Assembly (NCBI GenBank): GCA_035288805.1
Contig: DATDZG010000036.1
Location: 1-45,413 of the forward strand
Reading direction: 5' to 3'
DNA: 45,413 nucleotides
Source: Candidatus Nanoarchaeia archaeon
GTDB taxonomy: Archaea; Nanobdellota; Nanobdellia; SCGC-AAA011-G17; GW2011-AR20
In this document: in pieces, positions 2,330-32,199 of the stretch
Layout of the letters: each line of letters starts with the position of its first letter
Numbering within the stretch: the first letter of the stretch is position 1
The notes under the pieces: generated by a model
The model's database searches: none
Seen by the model: the letters and a program-made list of their open reading frames with translations, nothing else
What the model was told of the DNA's origin: nothing
Position numbers and translations under genes: made by a program

Positions 2330-3241
2330 ATGTCAAGATTACAATACAAAGAAGAACCAACAAAGCAGGATATGAGAGCAATCTCTCAATATCTTAAAGA
2401 GCTGGGAATAGAAGATGTATTGTCAAAAGAAGAAGAATATTCTTTGGTAAAAAGAATGAAGCTAGGCGATGCCGAGGCAAAAGAAAAACTAATAACCTCA
2501 AATCTTCGTTTTGTAGTTTCAGTAGCAAACAAAGAAGCAAGAAAAAGATTTTCTCATTTAAGGGATGACCCATCAGAGTATGATGAAGCAAAAAGTGATC
2601 TTATTTCAGAAGGAAACCTGGGATTAATGAAAGCTATAGAAAGATTTGATGAAACTCAGGGGTATAAACTCATCAGTTATGCAGTCTTTTGGATTAGACA
2701 GGCAATGATAGTTTACTCTTTAAACCAGTCACATACAGTAAGGCTTCCAAGCAATAGAATTGCAGTGCGTTCAAAAGTGAGAAAATTAGAAGATAGCCAT
2801 TATGTCGAAACAGGAGAAAAATTAACCCTGGATGAAATCGCATGTGAAACAGGATTAACAAAATCATCTATCCGTAATGCATTTGCAGTGGACAACAAAC
2901 CAATACGCCTCGACATCCCAATATCTAATGACACAGAGACAACACTTTATGATTTCTTGACCGACCCCCATCAACTCTCCCTGGAGGCATCACTATTAAA
3001 ATCAAAACTCAGGAAAGATATAGAATATTCACTAAAAGGGCTTGCAGAAAGAGAAGCAGAGGTTATCAGATTGTATTTCGGATTAGAAGATAATGGAGAT
3101 GGAAAAACTTTAGAAGAGATAGGAATTAAATTTGGAGTAACAAGAGAAAGAGTCAGGCAAATAAAGGAACAAGCAATAAGAAAGTTAAGGCACCATTCAA
3201 GAAGAGGGAAACTTGAATCTCATTGGAGAGAAATGAATTAA
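2330..3241 (+). CDS. Sigma-70 family RNA polymerase sigma factor, paralog 2
   Basis: 303 aa. Motifs: LITSNLRFVVSVANKE, DLISEGNLGLMKAIERF, YAVFWIRQAM, HTVRLPSNR, EREAEVIRLYFGL, VTRERVRQIKEQAIRKLRH. An extra insert (KRFSHLRDDPSEYDEAKS) lies between regions 2.1 and 2.2. A TTTAAAAATA box at 2301-2310 overlaps the stop of paralog 1. Confidence 0.9.
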   Translation: MSRLQYKEEPTKQDMRAISQYLKELGIEDVLSKEEEYSLVKRMKLGDAEAKEKLITSNLRFVVSVANKEARKRFSHLRDDPSEYDEAKSDLISEGNLGLMKAIERFDETQGYKLISYAVFWIRQAMIVYSLNQSHTVRLPSNRIAVRSKVRKLEDSHYVETGEKLTLDEIACETGLTKSSIRNAFAVDNKPIRLDIPISNDTETTLYDFLTDPHQLSLEASLLKSKLRKDIEYSLKGLAEREAEVIRLYFGLEDNGDGKTLEEIGIKFGVTRERVRQIKEQAIRKLRHHSRRGKLESHWREMN

Positions 3242-3258
3242 TAAACAAGGAAAATCAA

Positions 3259-4116
3259 ATGGCAAATTATGAAAGAGAACCAACATCAATAGGTCTAGAT
3301 TCTTTGGACATTTATTTCAAAGAAGTTAAATCATCAGATAATCTAAGCTATGAACAAGAAAGAGATCTTACAAGAAGAATAAGGTCGGGAGACGAAAGTG
3401 CAAGAGAGGAGTTAGTAGTAAAAAATCTCCGCTTTGTTATCTCTGTTGCAAGAGAGTATAGAAATCTAGGATTGCCTTTAGAAGATTTAATAGGTTGTGG
3501 AAATCTAGGATTAATGAATGCCATACAAGGATTTGACGAAACAAAAGGATTCAAATTTATCAGCTACGCAGTCTTTTGGATTCGACAAGCAATCCTGCAA
3601 AAATTAGCAGAAGAAAGAACAGTAAGAGTTCCTTTAAATCAAATAGACCTTTACTTGAAAATAAAAAAACAAAGAGATGAATACGCAAAAGATAACAATG
3701 GAGAAGAAATCTCTTTAGAAGAACTTGCACAAAAAACAGGCTCAACAACAGCCAAGATAGAATATGCTCTTAAAGCAACGAGAACAAATTTATCCCTAGA
3801 CGCACAATTTGATGAAGATGGAGAAAGAAATTTATATAATCTTCTTGCCTCAAGTGAAACTTCACCCGAACAAGCAGCTTATTTATCCGAGCTCAAAGAA
3901 AAAGTGAGAAGAGCATTAAGCCAGTTAGAACAAAATGAAGCAGAAGTTATCTCTTTGTACTTTGGATTAGAAGATGGAAGGGATAGAATAACCTTAGAAG
4001 AAATCGGCAAGCAGAAGGATTTAACTCGAGAAAGAGTCAGGCAAATCAAAGAAAAAGCCCTAAAGAAGTTAAGGCATAGGAATAGAGGCCTTCATGAATT
4101 ATACAAAGAGATGTAA
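3259..4116 (+). CDS. Sigma-70 family RNA polymerase sigma factor, paralog 3
   Basis: Motifs: LVVKNLRFVISVAREY, DLIGCGNLGLMNAIQGF, YAVFWIRQAI, RTVRVPLNQ, QNEAEVISLYFGL, LTRERVRQIKEKALKKLRH. The start is set at MANYEREPTS by alignment with the EPT(S/K) N-termini of paralogs 1 and 2. The ORF track start at 3223 is less likely. Confidence 0.88.
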   Translation: MANYEREPTSIGLDSLDIYFKEVKSSDNLSYEQERDLTRRIRSGDESAREELVVKNLRFVISVAREYRNLGLPLEDLIGCGNLGLMNAIQGFDETKGFKFISYAVFWIRQAILQKLAEERTVRVPLNQIDLYLKIKKQRDEYAKDNNGEEISLEELAQKTGSTTAKIEYALKATRTNLSLDAQFDEDGERNLYNLLASSETSPEQAAYLSELKEKVRRALSQLEQNEAEVISLYFGLEDGRDRITLEEIGKQKDLTRERVRQIKEKALKKLRHRNRGLHELYKEM

Positions 4117-25669: not shown

Positions 25670-26140
25670 TTAAATTGTAAATTCTTCAATTCTCGGTTTC
25701 AAAATCTTAACCAAATCTTTAGCTTTCATCAGAGCAGAATGCGTATGCTGTCCAATATTAAAATCAACATCTTCATTCTCCAAAATGCTCTTGTCCATCA
25801 AAATCTCAAGTTTCATTAAAAACCCAAAAGGATGTACACTTCCAATCTCACATCCAGAAATTTTTAAAACCTCTTCAGGACTAGCCAATCGAATATTTTT
25901 AACATGAAGAATCTCTCTTAATCTTTTAGAATCAGCTTTTCTATCTGCTCGTACAAGAATCAGCTTAAATTCATCTTTATCCAGTTTAAATATCAAAGAC
26001 TTAACACCCATTTTCAAAGGCATTCCTCTTTCTTTAGCAGCCTCTTCAGAAGTATAAACAACCCTGTGCACAATCAGTTTATATTTTATTTTTGACTTGT
26101 CAAGAAATTCAATAATCTGTTTAGTCTGTTGTTCTGCCAT
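25670..26140 (-). CDS. YbaK/ProX-type aminoacyl-tRNA deacylase domain protein
   Basis: 156 aa. GVKSLIFKLDKDEFKLILVRADRKADSKRL and GCEIGSVHPFG are typical of YbaK/EbsC editing domains. Confidence 0.7.
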   Translation of the reverse strand: MAEQQTKQIIEFLDKSKIKYKLIVHRVVYTSEEAAKERGMPLKMGVKSLIFKLDKDEFKLILVRADRKADSKRLREILHVKNIRLASPEEVLKISGCEIGSVHPFGFLMKLEILMDKSILENEDVDFNIGQHTHSALMKAKDLVKILKPRIEEFTI

Positions 26141-26825
26141 CTTTATCAGCTTGACTCTTGCCTCTTCTTAATGAATGGTAAGGCTTTCTTAAAAGTCTTC
26201 TTCTCATCTCATTTTCTAAACAAATAGATGCAACATCATATCCCCCGCTCTCTAGTCTTGTCTGCTCTAATTCTTCCACACCAATAATTTCTGAACGAAA
26301 CATATAGTTGTACCTGCTTTTGCTTAGGATGCCTAATTCTTTAAGAGTCGTTCTTAGATAATTCCTAGCCAGCCAGATTTTATCTCCAAGTTCTTTTCCA
26401 GTGAAAAAAGATTCATTGTTGCCATAGTCTAATTCAACTCTTTTTCTTAAAAAATCAAAATCTTGTGAGTAAACAATCCTCTGTGCTTCTATCTCGACAA
26501 AATCTCCTTCCCTAAAACCAGCCTGTTCAGTTTTATCAATAACATCAAACCAAATGCCATATTTTGTTAAGGAATCCGGCTGAGGGATAACATAAAAACA
26601 TCTCCCATTCCTAAAAGCAGCAATGGGGGTTTTATCTGCAATTAAAACAGCACCGCAAATTCCATCTAAAGTGAGGCAATCCCCGCGAATATCTGCCAGC
26701 ATATCAAAACTCAGAATTCTTCTTCTAAATGTTTTACAAACCCACAGAGAAAGAACAGGGTAAATTGCGTCTTGAGTAAAATTATCCCCCCAATCAAAGT
26801 CATCAAAATCATTTTCATTAGCCAT
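26121..26825 (-). CDS. Hypothetical protein (distant paralog of 26861-27505?)
   Basis: 234-aa ORF on the same strand as and tightly packed with rpoN and ybaK. R/E/G/L-rich composition. It shares LWVCKTF and DSLTKYG blocks with the upstream ORF (LFLCRDF, ESLSKYG). Confidence 0.5.
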   Translation of the reverse strand: MANENDFDDFDWGDNFTQDAIYPVLSLWVCKTFRRRILSFDMLADIRGDCLTLDGICGAVLIADKTPIAAFRNGRCFYVIPQPDSLTKYGIWFDVIDKTEQAGFREGDFVEIEAQRIVYSQDFDFLRKRVELDYGNNESFFTGKELGDKIWLARNYLRTTLKELGILSKSRYNYMFRSEIIGVEELEQTRLESGGYDVASICLENEMRRRLLRKPYHSLRRGKSQADKDGRTTD

Positions 26826-26860
26826 AAAAGAAAATAAAACAAAAAACTATAAGAACTTAT

Positions 26861-27505
26861 CTACAGCATGCCTTCTATTTGGAGACGCGTTTTGATGTCA
26901 TCAATCTTATCTTGATGAAAATATGCTGTAAAGCTCTCAACATAATGCACTGAAGAGGGGGTAAGCCCGAGCTGTTCAAAGGCTCTATCAAATGTCTCTT
27001 CACAAGTATCTAAACTTCTTCGGAACAGCGCAAGCTCAATAGAGGTAACAGTAAAATCAAGATTTGAAGATCCCTTTCCTTGGAGCATCTCTCTCGCTTG
27101 AATGTAAAAGGGTCTTCTGGCTGAACATGTAAGTTCAACCCCCGGATACAATTCTCCCCCCCTCAAAGTTCTTTTAGGGCGTAATTCAACACCATACTTT
27201 GAAAGGGATTCATCTCCAGTCATACACCCCACACCATTCAACAATTCTTTGATTATCAGCCTCTCCACTCTCCAAAGATCTCCTTCGAGCTCAAGGGTAG
27301 AATCAGCAAAATCAACTTCACGGCAATAAATAAGAGGAACGCCATTCGGAAGCAAGAAGGTAAGAACCCTTTTCTCAGGAAGCACGATGGGGTTTCCATA
27401 AAGATCATGAAGCTCTTCTCTCATCACACCATGAAGAGAAAAATCTCTGCAAAGAAAAAGAAGGTTGTAAGGGTTTTCAAGAGAATCATGAAAGATTGCA
27501 GGCAT
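26861..27505 (-). CDS. Hypothetical protein translationally coupled to rpoN
   Basis: The ATG at 27505 lies 1 nt after the rpoN stop (27507-27509). 214 aa. No recognised motif. Confidence 0.5.
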   Translation of the reverse strand: MPAIFHDSLENPYNLLFLCRDFSLHGVMREELHDLYGNPIVLPEKRVLTFLLPNGVPLIYCREVDFADSTLELEGDLWRVERLIIKELLNGVGCMTGDESLSKYGVELRPKRTLRGGELYPGVELTCSARRPFYIQAREMLQGKGSSNLDFTVTSIELALFRRSLDTCEETFDRAFEQLGLTPSSVHYVESFTAYFHQDKIDDIKTRLQIEGML

Positions 27506-27506
27506 C

Positions 27507-27707
27507 CTAATCCTTCTTAAACCCAGCAATATCATCAATCAAGTCAATATGCCCAAGGAAAACACTTCTGCAGCATGCTCTTTCCAATCCCAATTCATCC
27601 ATGGTCTCTTTCATATTCTTCTTTCTATGGTCAGTCTTTTCTAAAAAGGTCTCCCATAAATGAGCAATAGGTTTCCCGCATGTCATGCAGCGAATAGGAA
27701 TTATCAT
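27507..27707 (-). CDS. rpoN: DNA-directed RNA polymerase subunit N (Rpo10)
   Basis: 66 aa. MIIPIRCMTCGKPIAHLWE...CCR is the zinc-binding motif. Confidence 0.92.
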   Translation of the reverse strand: MIIPIRCMTCGKPIAHLWETFLEKTDHRKKNMKETMDELGLERACCRSVFLGHIDLIDDIAGFKKD

Positions 27708-27719
27708 AGTAATCTTCCG

Positions 27720-28289
27720 TTAAACTCCCTTTTTAAGCTTTTCTGCTTTCTTTTCTCGTTGCCATTCCCTGGGCGAATAATGAGAATATATTCCATTGTC
27801 CGTAAAGAACTTCAAAGTCTTTGAAAACAACCCCTTGCTCTCTACTTTAACTTGCTCAGTTTCTGGATAAAACAAGTCTTTAGGCAATTTATGTTTTACC
27901 AGTTCCTTCTGCAAAATCTTAAACTGTTTTTCATCAATCTCAAGCTGCCACATGCTCAATCCTTCAATGTAGTTAAATAAGATTCTTTGGTTTTTCCTAT
28001 TATAATCTTCATACAAATACAATCGAAAATAATAAGGCATCAAAGAATGTCGTGTTGCCCAAGAAAATAAATCAGCAATACACTTTTCTTTTTCACGTAA
28101 TGAACGAGGAAGAGTACCCTTCTTATACTTTTCATCTTTATTCTTCTTACCATCTTTTTTAAATGAAGAAAGTAAGTAACATTCATACCCATCACACCAA
28201 TTCATAAAAACATACAAAGAAATCAACAAAGCTTTTTTTGTAGAAAACTTTTCATCATACCAATAATAAGTTTCAGGATAATAAATCAT
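27720..28289 (-). CDS. Hypothetical protein between rps9 and rpoN
   Basis: The start is set at the ATG at 28289 (MIYYPETYYWYDEKF), 1 nt after the rps9 stop. The longer ORF-track start overlaps rps9. 189 aa, Y/K/W-rich, with no recognised motif. Confidence 0.5.
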   Translation of the reverse strand: MIYYPETYYWYDEKFSTKKALLISLYVFMNWCDGYECYLLSSFKKDGKKNKDEKYKKGTLPRSLREKEKCIADLFSWATRHSLMPYYFRLYLYEDYNRKNQRILFNYIEGLSMWQLEIDEKQFKILQKELVKHKLPKDLFYPETEQVKVESKGLFSKTLKFFTDNGIYSHYSPREWQREKKAEKLKKGV

Positions 28290-28290
28290 C

Positions 28291-28695
28291 TTAACGATAA
28301 GATTTTTGGCGTTTAGCACGAGCTTTAGAGTCATTAGGTTTGTACGGCTCTTTTCGTCTGACATCAGCAACGAGAAGATTCCTATCATATGCTAAAAAGT
28401 CTTTCTCTAATTTTTTGCTTCCCGTGTATCCGACCAAAGCTTTTGCAATGGCTAATCTTGAAGCTTCACTTTGTCCAAGCCATCCACCACCTTGAACGAA
28501 TACATTAATATCAACTTTTTTAACAATTTCATCACCAGCAATATGGAGGGGTTCAGAAATTTTTAATTTTCCGAGCAAAGGATTATAATGGTCAAGCAAT
28601 CTTTTATTAATTCTTATTATCCCTTTTCCATCAGTAATAGTTGCCCGAGCTATTGCAAGCTTTCTCCTTCCTGATGTGTGAAATGTTTTTGTCAT
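28291..28695 (-). CDS. rps9: 30S ribosomal protein S9 (uS9)
   Basis: 134 aa. It has GRRKLAIARATI...GGGWLGQSEASRLAIAKAL and the C-terminal KRQKSYR. Confidence 0.93.
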   Translation of the reverse strand: MTKTFHTSGRRKLAIARATITDGKGIIRINKRLLDHYNPLLGKLKISEPLHIAGDEIVKKVDINVFVQGGGWLGQSEASRLAIAKALVGYTGSKKLEKDFLAYDRNLLVADVRRKEPYKPNDSKARAKRQKSYR

Positions 28696-28750
28696 TTTTT
28701 TCCTTTGTTTTTTCTTTCCCGAAGGTTTCTTTTTTACAAAAAAGAAAGGC
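28696..28750 (+). repeat. Hairpin repeat copy filling the whole rpl13-rps9 intercistronic spacer
   Basis: TTTTTTCTTTCCCGAAGG / TTTCTTTTTTACAAAAAAGAAAGG. Confidence 0.7.
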
Positions 28751-29176
28751 TCATCCGTAGTGTTTCTTTCCTCTTAACAGTACAGATAATTCCTCTAAAG
28801 TAACATGTCTTAAGCTTTTTGATTTTCCAATATCGGCTTTTTCTACTTTCATGGCTTCCTTGCCTTCAAACTGGTCAGGAACCCCAAGATAGCATTTTAC
28901 TCTTTTAAAAGCTTCTTGACCTCTTGAAACCTTCCAAGGCAGCATTCCTCTAATGGTTCTTTTCAAGATTCTATCCGAAGTTTTAGGAAAGTAAGGTCCT
29001 TTGAAAGGGTTTCCTCTTTTAACCTTGGCATCATAATGTGCAAGAATCATTTTCTTGCTTCCTGTAATGCAGGCCTTATCAGCATTGATAATATCAACCT
29101 GTTGCCCAAGCAATACCTGCTTCGCAGCATAAGCAGCTATTTTTCCAGCAATCCCATTTTCAGCATCGATTATCAT
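28751..29176 (-). CDS. rpl13: 50S ribosomal protein L13 (uL13)
   Basis: MIIDAENGIAGKIAAYAAKQVLLGQQVDIINADKACITG is the typical uL13 N-terminus. An alternative GTG start at 29182 would overlap the upstream ORF stop. Confidence 0.92.
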   Translation of the reverse strand: MIIDAENGIAGKIAAYAAKQVLLGQQVDIINADKACITGSKKMILAHYDAKVKRGNPFKGPYFPKTSDRILKRTIRGMLPWKVSRGQEAFKRVKCYLGVPDQFEGKEAMKVEKADIGKSKSLRHVTLEELSVLLRGKKHYG

Positions 29177-29178
29177 TT

Positions 29179-29574
29179 TCACACCAAAAATTGAGAGCGT
29201 GCACGTTCTATCACTGCTAAAAGCGTAAATGCAGCAACCTTCTCATTTTCTCCTATGTCTTTATACAATTCCACAACACCCATATGCCCCTCAAGTACTT
29301 CCACAAAACAGGCATCTATTCCACGAGGATTATGATGTTGGATGTCAGTTAACGCTGAAATCTCCCCATCATCTGTTCCTTTTCTTTCCCAAATTCCAGC
29401 AATAATCCTAATAGCTTCTCCTTCCCTCATGCGATATCCAAGAGAGAATCCAAAATTCACATCATCATATTGATACCTCTTATCAAGTGTTTCAGAATTG
29501 CAAGGACCTTCTTGCCATATTCCATTTACACGTTCTGCATATCCTGTTTCAGTTCCACTATTCATCTTAACCAA
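29179..29574 (-). CDS. Hypothetical protein wedged between rpl18e and rpl13
   Basis: 131-aa ORF. Its start overlaps the rpl18e stop by 8 nt and its stop abuts the rpl13 start. It has an internal GIWQEG / GIWERKG echo. No recognised motif. Confidence 0.5.
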   Translation of the reverse strand: MVKMNSGTETGYAERVNGIWQEGPCNSETLDKRYQYDDVNFGFSLGYRMREGEAIRIIAGIWERKGTDDGEISALTDIQHHNPRGIDACFVEVLEGHMGVVELYKDIGENEKVAAFTLLAVIERARSQFLV

Positions 29575-29929
29575 TAATCCTCACTTTGTTTCCCTTAGGA
29601 TTTTTCTTTAATAATTCTTGAATGGAAATCGCTTTTCCTGTTTTATTAATCTTTCCTTCAGCGCTTTCAGAAAATTTATACGCAGCAACAATATTTTTCT
29701 TATTAAATTCTCCAAGACTTAAAACCTTGCCAGGCACAATTGCGGTTTCTCCTTCTCTAACACTCTCTTGTAAAGTATACAAATTAACCTCTCTTCTTAT
29801 TCTCCGGGGTCTTTCTAAATCTGCTGCAATCCTTAGCCAGAGAGGGACCTTTTGCTCTCTTCCTGCTTTTTTAAGTTCAACAATAAGATTTTGCAGTTCT
29901 AATGTTGAAGGTCCTGTTCTTTTTGACAT
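29567..29929 (-). CDS. rpl18e: 50S ribosomal protein L18e
   Basis: 120 aa. It has LIVELKKAGREQKVPLWLRIAADLERPRR...VPGKVL, typical of archaeal L18e. Confidence 0.88.
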   Translation of the reverse strand: MSKRTGPSTLELQNLIVELKKAGREQKVPLWLRIAADLERPRRIRREVNLYTLQESVREGETAIVPGKVLSLGEFNKKNIVAAYKFSESAEGKINKTGKAISIQELLKKNPKGNKVRIIG

Positions 29930-30067: not shown

Positions 30068-30214
30068 TGCGGAGAACAGGATTCGAAATCGCAGCCTCTT
30101 AGGATTCTCGGTTTTCTTTCCCGAGGGTTTCTTTTCCCAAAAGAAAGGCTCCTGCGTAGGCACTAAGCCACCAGCTCCTTAGGCTGGCGCGTTTGACCAC
30201 TCCGCCATCTCCGC
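30068..30214 (-). tRNA. tRNA-Leu, anticodon read as AAG, with a ~63-nt intron in the T-arm (30088-30150)
   Basis: The minus strand reads GCGGAGA-TG-GCGGAGTGGTCAAACGC-G-CCAGC-CTAAGGA-GCTGG-T-GGCTTAGTGCC-TAC-GCAGG-[intron]-TTCGAAT-CCTGT-TCTCCGC-A. It has a class II long variable arm. The T-stem GCAGG/CCTGT forms only if 30088-30150 is removed. No CCA is encoded. A TATA box lies at 30240-30247. Confidence 0.75.
30110..30149 (+). repeat. Hairpin repeat copy forming most of the tRNA intron
   Basis: GGTTTTCTTTCCCGAGGG / TTTCTTTTCCCAAAAGAAAGGC. Near-identical module to 28710-28750. Confidence 0.65.
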
Positions 30215-30247: not shown

Positions 30248-30313
30248 TGTTTTTATGTGTGGCTAGGTAGAAATAATCGGAAGGTTTATATATACATGCA
30301 TATGCATATGCAT

Positions 30314-30547
30314 ATGGTAAAAGTGATATCTCTATCAGAACACGCATACGCAAGTCTAAAAAATCTCAAAGAAGGAAGCGATTCTTTCTCTGAAGTAGTA
30401 TTAAGGTTGATACATAAAGAAAAGAAAAAATCCTTATTATCTTTCGCAGGAATTTGGAAAGACATGCCAGAAATGGATCTAGTTTTTAATGACATTCTTT
30501 CAGAAAGGCACAAAACAAAAGATAGGAAATTGAATCTGAAATGGTAG
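30314..30547 (+). CDS. VapB-like antitoxin
   Basis: MVKVISLSEHAYASLKNLKEGSDSFSEVVLRL is typical of small archaeal VapB/DUF217-type antitoxins. It overlaps the downstream PIN gene by 7 nt. The start is chosen 21 nt after a GTTTATATATA box. Confidence 0.6.
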   Translation: MVKVISLSEHAYASLKNLKEGSDSFSEVVLRLIHKEKKKSLLSFAGIWKDMPEMDLVFNDILSERHKTKDRKLNLKW

Positions 30548-30936
30548 TGCTTGATACCGATATACTCATCGGACTTTTAAGAAATAATGGGGAAGCCGTA
30601 ACAAAAATACAGGAATTGGAGCAGCAATACTCAAATAGATATACAACATCCATATCATCGTACGAGCTGTTGAAGGGAGCATACCAATCTTCAAATCCCT
30701 CAAAAGGCATAACTCAAGTTTCAACCATGTTGCAAAGTCTAACAATACTAGATTTTGATTTCAACTCCTCAAAGATAAGTGCACAGATTTTTAGCTATTT
30801 AAAGAAAAAGGGGGTATTAACCAGCTCAATGGATCAAATGATTGCAGCAATAGCAATTTCTCAGGGTAAGATTTTAGTAACAAGGAATGCGAAGCATTAT
30901 CAGCATATACCTCATTTGAAAATTGAGGAATGGTAA
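30541..30936 (+). CDS. vapC: PIN-domain toxin VapC
   Basis: MVVLDTDILIGLL..., ...SSYELLKG..., ...SSMDQMIAAIAISQGKILVTRNAKHY are the four conserved acidic and T.N blocks of PIN. Confidence 0.8.
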   Translation: MVVLDTDILIGLLRNNGEAVTKIQELEQQYSNRYTTSISSYELLKGAYQSSNPSKGITQVSTMLQSLTILDFDFNSSKISAQIFSYLKKKGVLTSSMDQMIAAIAISQGKILVTRNAKHYQHIPHLKIEEW

Positions 30937-31075: not shown

Positions 31076-31387
31076 TTAATTCTGCACAAAAATCCATAAG
31101 ATGCCTTGCCAGTGTCCTTCCAAACAAAACAAATAATCTTGTCTATGAGAATATTCAATCAACCCAGAAAGATTCTCCCCAAGAGCATATTCTTTTTCAT
31201 AGATAACAAAGATGTGCAATACAGCACCGCCGTGGCTTCTCAAAAGTCTTTTAAGCACATCTCCCCTTTCTTCTTCAGTTAAGCCTTCAGGTAATTGAGA
31301 TAAATAAAAATCATACAATTTTCTATAAGAACGAAGGGACGATTCACGCGAAACTTTTTCTTGATTTAAAACCTGCATGTTAACCAC
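31076..31387 (-). CDS. Hypothetical protein immediately downstream of rpoD
   Basis: 103-aa ORF that starts 6 nt after the rpoD stop. No recognised motif. Confidence 0.4.
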   Translation of the reverse strand: MVNMQVLNQEKVSRESSLRSYRKLYDFYLSQLPEGLTEEERGDVLKRLLRSHGGAVLHIFVIYEKEYALGENLSGLIEYSHRQDYLFCLEGHWQGILWIFVQN

Positions 31388-31393
31388 AGAAAA

Positions 31394-32173
31394 TTATTTG
31401 CTCTTTTTCAACTCTTTTTCAAACTCATTCAGTTTCTTATCAAAAATCTCAAGGGCCTTTAAAAAAATCTCTTTAATCTCTAACTGCCCAAAGCTTTCCA
31501 TTGTAAAAATAAACTTATCTTTTTTTCCTCGAACCTCAACATTGTCATCATTATCCATGCACGCATTACAAAGAACGCATTTCTCAAGATGCTTCACTTT
31601 TAATTTCCCAGAATCAACTTCAAAAACTTTTGTAGGGCATACAGAAGCAACAGATTCAGGATTTTTCACAGCCCCAATTTTAATCTCAGGATAATGCTGG
31701 TAGTAAAACCATCCAGGAGAAAATTTCATATGTGTTTTTCCTTTTCCAAGAACAGCAACAGCATCTAATTTAAGCTTCTGATTTTTTTCAAGTTTAACCA
31801 AAACCATGTTGTCATAAACCGGTTTTACTTCAGGGTCTTTGCATTTCAAATCCCCAGAATAAACAGTGCAGGGTCCAGCAGCTTCCAAAGTAAAATCAAC
31901 CTGGCATAAAGCACATCCTTCTCCCTTGCATTTGCATTCATCTTTTAAATTGTAAGATTTCAAATCTGTTTTCAAAGGAACCAAACCAATTCTGTGAGCA
32001 AGAAACTCATCGTACAAAGCAGAGCCATTTTTATGAAATTCAACTTCAGCTATAGCCATAGTAGGAACCTCAGCAATCATCAATCTCCTTAGAGTATTTG
32101 CCATAACATAATCAATACCCTCAAGAGAAATTTGCAGTTTATTTTCAGATTGAGCCAGAATCTTAGTTTCCAT
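31394..32173 (-). CDS. rpoD: DNA-directed RNA polymerase subunit D (Rpo3) with Fe-S cluster domain
   Basis: It has VMANTLRRLMIAEVPTMAI and LAHRIGLVPL, plus the cysteine clusters CKCKGEGCALCQ and CPTKVF...CVLCNAC. The start is set at METKIL, with an alternative at 32194. Confidence 0.9.
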   Translation of the reverse strand: METKILAQSENKLQISLEGIDYVMANTLRRLMIAEVPTMAIAEVEFHKNGSALYDEFLAHRIGLVPLKTDLKSYNLKDECKCKGEGCALCQVDFTLEAAGPCTVYSGDLKCKDPEVKPVYDNMVLVKLEKNQKLKLDAVAVLGKGKTHMKFSPGWFYYQHYPEIKIGAVKNPESVASVCPTKVFEVDSGKLKVKHLEKCVLCNACMDNDDNVEVRGKKDKFIFTMESFGQLEIKEIFLKALEIFDKKLNEFEKELKKSK

Positions 32174-32199
32174 TGATAGAAAACTGAAAAACACACTTT

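Follow-up and report, generated by a model that had tools for sequence, protein, structure and literature searches.

Do open reading frames (ORFs) that sit flush between ribosomal protein and RNA polymerase genes encode new partners of those machines, or are they lodgers in a favourable place? The question is raised by two ORFs in a contig of 45,413 nucleotides (nt), here called the window (contig C36), which belongs to the genome assembly (837 kb, 54 contigs, 83% complete) of a groundwater Woesearchaeota (DPANN) archaeon. One of them, orf131, lies between the genes for ribosomal proteins L18e and L13; the other, orf189, lies between the gene for ribosomal protein S9 and rpoN, which encodes RNA polymerase subunit N (Rpb10). 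An earlier reading of the same DNA, made from its letters and ORFs without database searches (the sequence-only reading), had placed both inside the L18e-L13-S9-rpoN cluster, as gene order and the Pfam matches of the neighbours bear out, and had proposed that they are lineage-specific ribosome- or RNA polymerase-associated proteins. Our comparison with relatives points elsewhere: orf131 and orf189 are probably genuine species-level accessory ORFan genes, single-gene cassettes that occupy operon junctions and are tolerated as passengers at a turnover hotspot.

Both ORFs probably encode proteins

Host-like codon usage, selection and intact frames indicate that both ORFs encode proteins. With 0.072 stops expected per codon, a run of 128 codons (orf131) would be free of stops with a probability of 7e-5, and one of 189 codons (orf189) with a probability of 7e-7. 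We also trained a codon model on 343 long ORFs of this genome; its preference for the annotated frame over the five others, in nats per codon, was 0.218 for orf131 and 0.108 for orf189, both within the range of the training genes (mean 0.19, standard deviation 0.06). The locus is no assembly artefact, because identical DNA is present in contigs of groundwater and soil runs, with seven studies among the matches listed; contigs from four of these seven, aligned over the ORFs, showed identical copies only.

The nearest relative that we found is a metagenome contig, L037 (loci of relatives bear three-digit numbers throughout), whose S9, L13 and L18e are 87%, 84% and 79% identical to those of the window. 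Its L18e-L13 junction holds an ORF of 68 amino acids (aa) that is 70% identical over 71 aa to residues 58-128 of orf131 (BLASTP E 3e-32). Purifying selection, which the sequence-only reading had expected of both ORFs, was seen from the ratio of nonsynonymous to synonymous substitutions (dN/dS) for this orf131 module only (0.23, Fisher p 2e-5); L18e, L13 and S9 give 0.07-0.09 in the same pair. The comparison indicates that the selected part of orf131 is its C-terminal 70 aa. The only relative of orf189 is P0006, a protein from ENA; the two share 76% identity across 162 residues, the frame is intact and there is a single 1-residue indel.

These data make it very improbable that the ORFs are spurious, that is, stretches left open by chance in a non-coding spacer or in the decayed remains of, say, a LAGLIDADG gene. 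The lack of any family match, the poor structure models described below and the lack of an RNA run at the locus would suit such an account, but the odds of ORFs this long, their codon usage, the purifying selection on orf131 and a frame in orf189 that survives 24% protein divergence all argue against it. So does a hidden Markov model (HMM) built from 13 LAGLIDADG homologues, which found no remnant in six frames of the window operon (best E 5.9).

The ORFs are missing from close relatives

Conservation of the insertions across related genomes, on which the sequence-only reading depended, was not seen. Searches of G001, a same-genus genome that is 91% complete, of 60 relatives and of 240 genomes from the order turned up neither orf131 nor orf189, and among metagenomic loci only the C-terminal half of orf131 recurs, in L037 alone of the close relatives. 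When 20 kb of window DNA were aligned to G001, L18e, L13, S9, rpoN and ybaK matched at 72-77% identity, and the parts skipped were exactly positions 29180-29561 (orf131), 27663-28294 (orf189) and 26131-27507 (two further orphans, orf215 and orf234). In G001 the first of these junctions is contiguous (L18e-TAA-A-ATG-L13) and the S9-rpoN junction is a 157-nt spacer.

The slots are filled differently elsewhere. Each of the three nearest metagenomic lineages (L037, L057 and L040) is missing orf189 and has another occupant between S9 and rpoN: a LAGLIDADG gene with a helix-turn-helix (HTH) region in L037 and L057, and an unrelated 133-aa orphan in L040, whose S9 is 80% identical to that of the window. 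At the L18e-L13 junction, L037 lacks the N-terminal half of orf131 and carries another orphan beside its 68-aa homologue of the C-terminal half. The sequence-only reading had itself named absence from close relatives as the observation that would speak against ribosome- or RNA polymerase-associated proteins, and absence is what we observed, in G001 for both ORFs and in L037, L057 and L040 for orf189.

Operon junctions as sites of turnover

Across this order, genes have repeatedly been gained, lost and replaced at three junctions of the operon. Our survey covered relatives' loci in both genomes and metagenomes, including a few that are repeat entries for one organism. L18e and L13 stand 150 nt or more apart in 11 of 45 loci, L13 and S9 in 8 of 47, and S9 and rpoN in 15 of 33; same-strand ORFs of at least 40 aa are present in 11, 6 and 11 of these gaps, respectively. 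That the four genes are normally contiguous, as the sequence-only reading had it, is only partly true in this lineage. The occupants include Bro-N, LAGLIDADG, DUF7282, DUF498/Mth938-like and Zn-ribbon proteins and otherwise belong to no family. Among 53 junction ORFs, 32 are singletons and the others fall into small families, whose dN/dS of 0.43-0.56 is relaxed but non-neutral.

Two features of accessory cassettes are accordingly present here, namely presence and absence between conserved flanks and unrelated occupants at the same site. The alternative offered by the sequence-only reading, selfish insertions that hitch-hike on a highly expressed operon, stands in outline, given the turnover hotspots and the LAGLIDADG genes between S9 and rpoN, and fits better than its main idea; the selfish function that it implies found no support. 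The positive result is that the junctions of a near-universal archaeal operon are turnover sites in Woesearchaeota, where a free-standing LAGLIDADG gene, genes of mobile elements and many orphans are lodged, often with a strict stop-N-start grammar.

A stop/start grammar shared by unrelated occupants

We keep the name orf131 for both of its possible starts, which give 128 aa from ATG 29565 or 131 aa from TTG 29574. The ATG is the likelier, lying 1 nt after the L18e stop (TAA-G-ATG), and the public gene call also has 128 aa; the 8-nt overlap with L18e described earlier holds only from the TTG, while the position of the ORF stands. At its other end orf131 does adjoin L13, although the likelier L13 start is ATG 29176, in agreement with the MIID/MIIN starts of homologues, which leaves 2 nt (AA) after the orf131 TGA. 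For orf189 the spacing was given correctly: it begins 1 nt past the S9 stop (TAA-G-ATG) and stops 12 nt short of the rpoN ATG. Spacers of 1, 2, 1 and 12 nt around the two ORFs leave no room for a promoter or terminator of their own, so their expression must come from the operon.

Such spacing is compatible with reinitiation. In Haloferax, reinitiation works at the native distance of +1 nt, is 40-60% lower at 13-14 nt and no longer occurs at 22-23 nt (PMC10666635), and coupling has been demonstrated for the native pair HVO_0685/0686, which has the same +1-nt spacing as the window junctions with their TAA-N-ATG (Huber et al. 2023, PMC10666635). Subunits of complexes are also enriched among gene pairs that overlap or lie close together (PMC10666635). 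The window ORFs differ from such pairs in being variable between close relatives, and because the coupled partner varies in this way, coupling is more likely to be a constraint on which insertions are tolerated.

The grammar is not peculiar to the window. The ancestral TAA-N-ATG, or an ATGA overlap, serves as the start of the occupant in 9 of 13 distinct occupied L18e-L13 loci, and unrelated occupants reuse the ancestral TAA-N-ATG at this junction in L012, L015, L024, L028, L037, L042, L043, L055 and L078. In the loci that we read closely (the window, L012, L015 and L024), the occupant ends 1-4 nt 5' of the L13 ATG, and the stop/start grammar is duplicated around the cassette. Because unrelated ORFs share this grammar at the same junctions, tight embedding is here no evidence of stoichiometric partnership, and the step from one to the other in the sequence-only reading fails; more generally, a snug position in an operon says little about partnership on its own.

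We therefore consider it improbable that orf131 and orf189 are lineage-specific proteins that are co-translated in a fixed ratio with their neighbours and bound to the ribosome or RNA polymerase. That account can call on the +1-nt spacing to the upstream genes, which is compatible with termination-reinitiation, on the purifying selection on the orf131 module, on the basic character of orf189 (isoelectric point (pI) 9.3) and on the enrichment of close gene pairs for complex subunits (PMC10666635). However, it has to contend with the absence of both ORFs from G001 and of orf189 from the nearest metagenomic relatives, with unrelated ORFs at the same junctions under the same grammar, with an orf131 that is acidic and half dispensable in L037, and with the lack of similarity to ribosomal protein or RNA polymerase families in Pfam, NCBIfam and PDB sequences. 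Neither the presence from genus to order nor the family or PDB sequence match that would mark a ribosomal protein or RNA polymerase subunit was found, and the comparisons suggest that the two proteins are not core components of either machine. Two tempting candidates for 'new DPANN ribosome or RNA polymerase subunits' are thereby removed.

Probable passengers and a proposed survival filter

How would accessory genes come to be embedded so tightly? The operon is presumably essential, and insertions would survive in it only if they lay on the same strand, did not terminate transcription and kept a TAA-N-ATG for termination-reinitiation. A survival filter of this kind, common to unrelated occupants, would yield tight embedding, rather than any functional partnership. 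It is probable that both genes are transcribed together with L18e and S9 and that their translation is coupled to that of these neighbours. They may travel as passengers on a strongly expressed operon, in the manner of phage 'morons', with moderate purifying selection maintaining an accessory role.

The comparison with morons and other strain-specific ORFans is instructive in both directions. Like these, the window ORFs are single extra genes between conserved neighbours, missing from close relatives and dependent on the surrounding block for their expression. Morons typically carry their own promoter and terminator. The window ORFs, in contrast, have spacers of 1-12 nt with no room for either, and their host block is a cellular ribosomal and RNA polymerase operon rather than a prophage. 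The foreign composition or nearby mobility gene that would be a further mark was likewise not found: codon usage is host-like, and we found no mobility gene in the window operon.

Several observations weigh against reading the ORFs as passenger cassettes. Neither ORF has a nuclease, transposase or toxin signature in Pfam, PHROGs, NCBIfam or PADLOC; no direct repeats or target-site duplications flank them, the shared junction motif being all that was found, and the dispersed repeat of the locus lies in the L13-S9 spacer rather than next to either ORF; AlphaFold2 models of the two have predicted local distance difference test (pLDDT) values of 45 and 41 and are unusable; and no RNA run is among the runs that hold the locus. 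Host-like codon usage and purifying selection would also fit a host-beneficial, even ribosome-linked, role in this species, which is possible.

A bolder version of the cassette reading is that, in Woesearchaeota, the TAA-N-ATG junctions of this operon are exchange sites for single-ORF cassettes, swapped in register, with orf131 and orf189 as strain-specific modulators whose production keeps pace with that of L18e/L13 and S9/RpoN. We regard this as unlikely. Microhomology at the motif might mediate the exchange, or the exchange might follow cuts made by a homing endonuclease. If true, each newcomer would instantly gain translationally coupled expression at a ribosomal level, and if the grammar is a mechanism rather than a filter, it would offer reduced genomes a simple route to test new genes at high expression.

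A LAGLIDADG gene family in the slot of orf189

Free-standing homing-endonuclease genes that occupy slots between conserved genes ('intronless homing') are known, as in the seg and mob genes of T4-like phages. The window operon is similar in that an extra gene lies exactly between conserved genes that normally touch, is patchy in close relatives and belongs to a slot with occupant turnover, and a LAGLIDADG gene holds the very slot of orf189 in L037. This gene (L037:3905-5143, + strand; 412 aa, P0008) matches LAGLIDADG_3 (PF14528) with 27.4 bits against a cut-off of 22.5 and has HTH-like matches at its C terminus. Free-standing LAGLIDADG_3 plus HTH genes of about 410-500 aa are also present in L057 (294-1203), L015, L022 and L069-L080, and the family occurs in 38 of the 240 genomes of the order. 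It directly follows S9 in 11 of 12 loci examined, is inverted in two, and several of its copies have internal stops.

The window ORFs differ from such genes: neither has a nuclease motif, a LAGLIDADG domain or similarity to the family. The LAGLIDADG genes keep spacers of 100-200 nt, with a TATA-like box before the L037 copy, whereas the window ORFs are fused into the translational coupling of the operon. We considered whether orf189 is a decayed LAGLIDADG gene and rejected this (BLASTP against P0008, E 2.3). Members of the family are about as diverged as S9 (44-65% versus 49-70% identity, r 0.32), and either long residence with losses or site-specific homing is possible for them, as far as these identities indicate.

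A putative homing endonuclease in this slot suggests another role for orf189, as a site-blocker: its insertion would split the LAGLIDADG target between S9 and rpoN and make the allele immune, the encoded protein being secondary. The occurrence of the LAGLIDADG-HTH gene in exactly this slot in L037 and in many genomes of the order, and of three different occupants in three close lineages, speaks for such anti-homing. We nonetheless hold it to be an improbable explanation, since the target site and activity of the endonuclease are only putative, a divergence near that of S9 is compatible with long residence and with active homing alike, the conservation between orf189 and P0006 suggests selection on the protein itself, and orf131 is left unexplained.

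New orphan families

The searches indicate that orf131 (acidic, pI 4.7) and orf189 (with 18% aromatic residues) are new orphan families. Neither has a hit in Pfam, PHROGs, NCBIfam or PADLOC, and searches of PDB sequences with two-sequence profiles of each ORF were empty, which agrees with the sequence-only reading, where no motif had been recognised. A word-indexed search of 5.8e9 proteins returned only the two proteins and the close relatives already described, orf131 as query finding itself alone; a metagenome scan with the orf189 alignment found nothing. An ESM Atlas model (pLDDT 0.48) was unusable, and the ESM Atlas feature hits for orf189 were all below 0.9 and in unnamed clusters only. 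Profiles of toxins, antitoxins and anti-phage defence (PADLOC, Pfam and NCBIfam) match neither ORF and do match a nearby VapBC pair. We found no earlier description in the literature.

One search gave a seeming identity. Against 1.84e9 representative proteins, phmmer with orf131 found itself and one 1270-aa ankyrin-repeat protein (E 1e-9, 54.5 bits). We rejected an ankyrin identity: the 54.5 bits are a sum over 16 near-identical repeats, each contributing at most 7.2 bits, and we judged the match to be chance, with 1 of 300 shuffled queries reaching 46.8 bits. Pfam Ank models did not match orf131 at E values up to 5, and neither a repeat above the Pfam threshold nor a tandem array was found. 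Compared by eye with the ankyrin consensus, orf131 has no TPLH motif, and its GH pair is lost in L037. Residues 73-110 weakly resemble the second helix and loop of one repeat (7.2 bits), a weak lead only.

Two other candidates were set aside. A PD-(D/E)xK motif seen by eye in orf189 was dropped, as the candidate residues D95 and D119 are not kept in P0006. Similar termini of orf131 and L13 had raised the suspicion of diverged duplicates of neighbouring genes; in Smith-Waterman comparison with 300 shuffles z was 1.4 for orf131 and L13 and exceeded 2.8 for none of the pairs, BLASTP E values for the pairs were above 0.1, and the idea was rejected. The four orphans of the block (orf131, orf189, orf215 and orf234) resemble neither one another nor their neighbours.

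Orphans of this kind could also have arisen in place, from expanded or duplicated junction DNA that used the old start of the downstream gene, as young proteins still being shaped. The first bases of orf189, ATGAT, copy the ancestral start context of rpoN at the ancestral S9-rpoN position (TAA-G-ATGAT), and such an origin would agree with the failure to find, among 5.8e9 or 1.84e9 proteins, any homologue of either ORF other than a single close relative, with host-like codon usage, with the missing N-terminal half of orf131 in L037 and with low-confidence structure predictions. De novo birth nevertheless seems doubtful to us, and improbable overall: there is no detectable similarity to neighbouring genes or other DNA of the genome, a 70-aa module that evolves at a dN/dS of 0.23 points to a fold or function already in place, and 570 nt of new DNA need a source.

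The block and its surroundings

The features of the locus are collected in Table 1.

Table 1. Positions of the operon genes, the orphan ORFs and neighbouring features in the window
Feature	Position	Strand	Remarks
rpoD	31394-32194	-	Context
103-aa ORF	31076-31387	-	Directly 3' of rpoD, before the VapBC pair; without Pfam match
VapB antitoxin (PF02697) and VapC PIN-domain toxin (PF01850) pair	30257-30936	+	Profile matches; between rpoD and tRNA/L18e
tRNA	30068-30214	-	Rfam, full-length over 147 nt, 37.6 bits
rpl18e (ribosomal protein L18e)	29567-29929	-	First gene of the block; Pfam PF00828, 26.7 bits, passes cut-off
orf131, 128 aa from ATG	29179-29565	-	Between L18e and L13; orphan
orf131 conserved C-terminal module, residues 58-128	29179-29394	-	BLASTP against the L037 68-aa ORF
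rpl13 (ribosomal protein L13)	28751-29176	-	Pfam PF00572; ORF open to 29182
L13-S9 spacer, 55 nt	28696-28750	.	Filled by a dispersed-repeat copy with a T6 run
rps9 (ribosomal protein S9)	28291-28695	-	Pfam PF00380, 114.6 bits
orf189, 189 aa	27720-28289	-	Between S9 and rpoN; orphan
rpoN (RNA polymerase subunit N / Rpb10)	27507-27707	-	Pfam PF01194, 80.7 bits
orf215, 214 aa, acidic	26861-27505	-	Starts 1 nt after the rpoN stop (TAG-G-ATG); no family hit
orf234, 234 aa, acidic	26121-26825	-	rpoN-ybaK junction; no family hit
ybaK-like gene	25670-26140	-	Downstream of orf234

A TATA-like TTAAAAATA box lies about 20 nt 5' of the rpl18e ATG, and L18e of the window is 76-79% identical to that of relatives. 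At the other end of the block, rpoN is followed by ybaK in the family relatives L007 and L008, and G001 has only a partial homologue of orf234, 35% identical. An Rfam scan found no RNA family within the ORF regions.

The repeat in the L13-S9 spacer is dispersed in the genome: positions 28708-28752 are covered by hits elsewhere, with five other hits. Many contigs of G001 carry copies that are 85-98% identical, and in G001 itself L13 and S9 overlap, without this spacer. Another copy (30112-30171) lies in the putative intron of the tRNA at 30068-30214, which ARAGORN misses; this fits a long, non-canonically placed intron.

In L009, a family relative, a 279-aa Bro-N protein (PF02498; 1724-2563, + strand) is encoded between S9 and rpoN, followed by a small Zn-ribbon ORF that is common to L008. 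Bro-N domains are typical of viruses and mobile elements. In L037 both spacers that flank rps9 (about 3225-3290 and about 3785-3830) share a hairpin element (GGAATTTGGCGTGCTCAAGAAC...GTTCTTGACA), which is not the dispersed repeat seen in the window.

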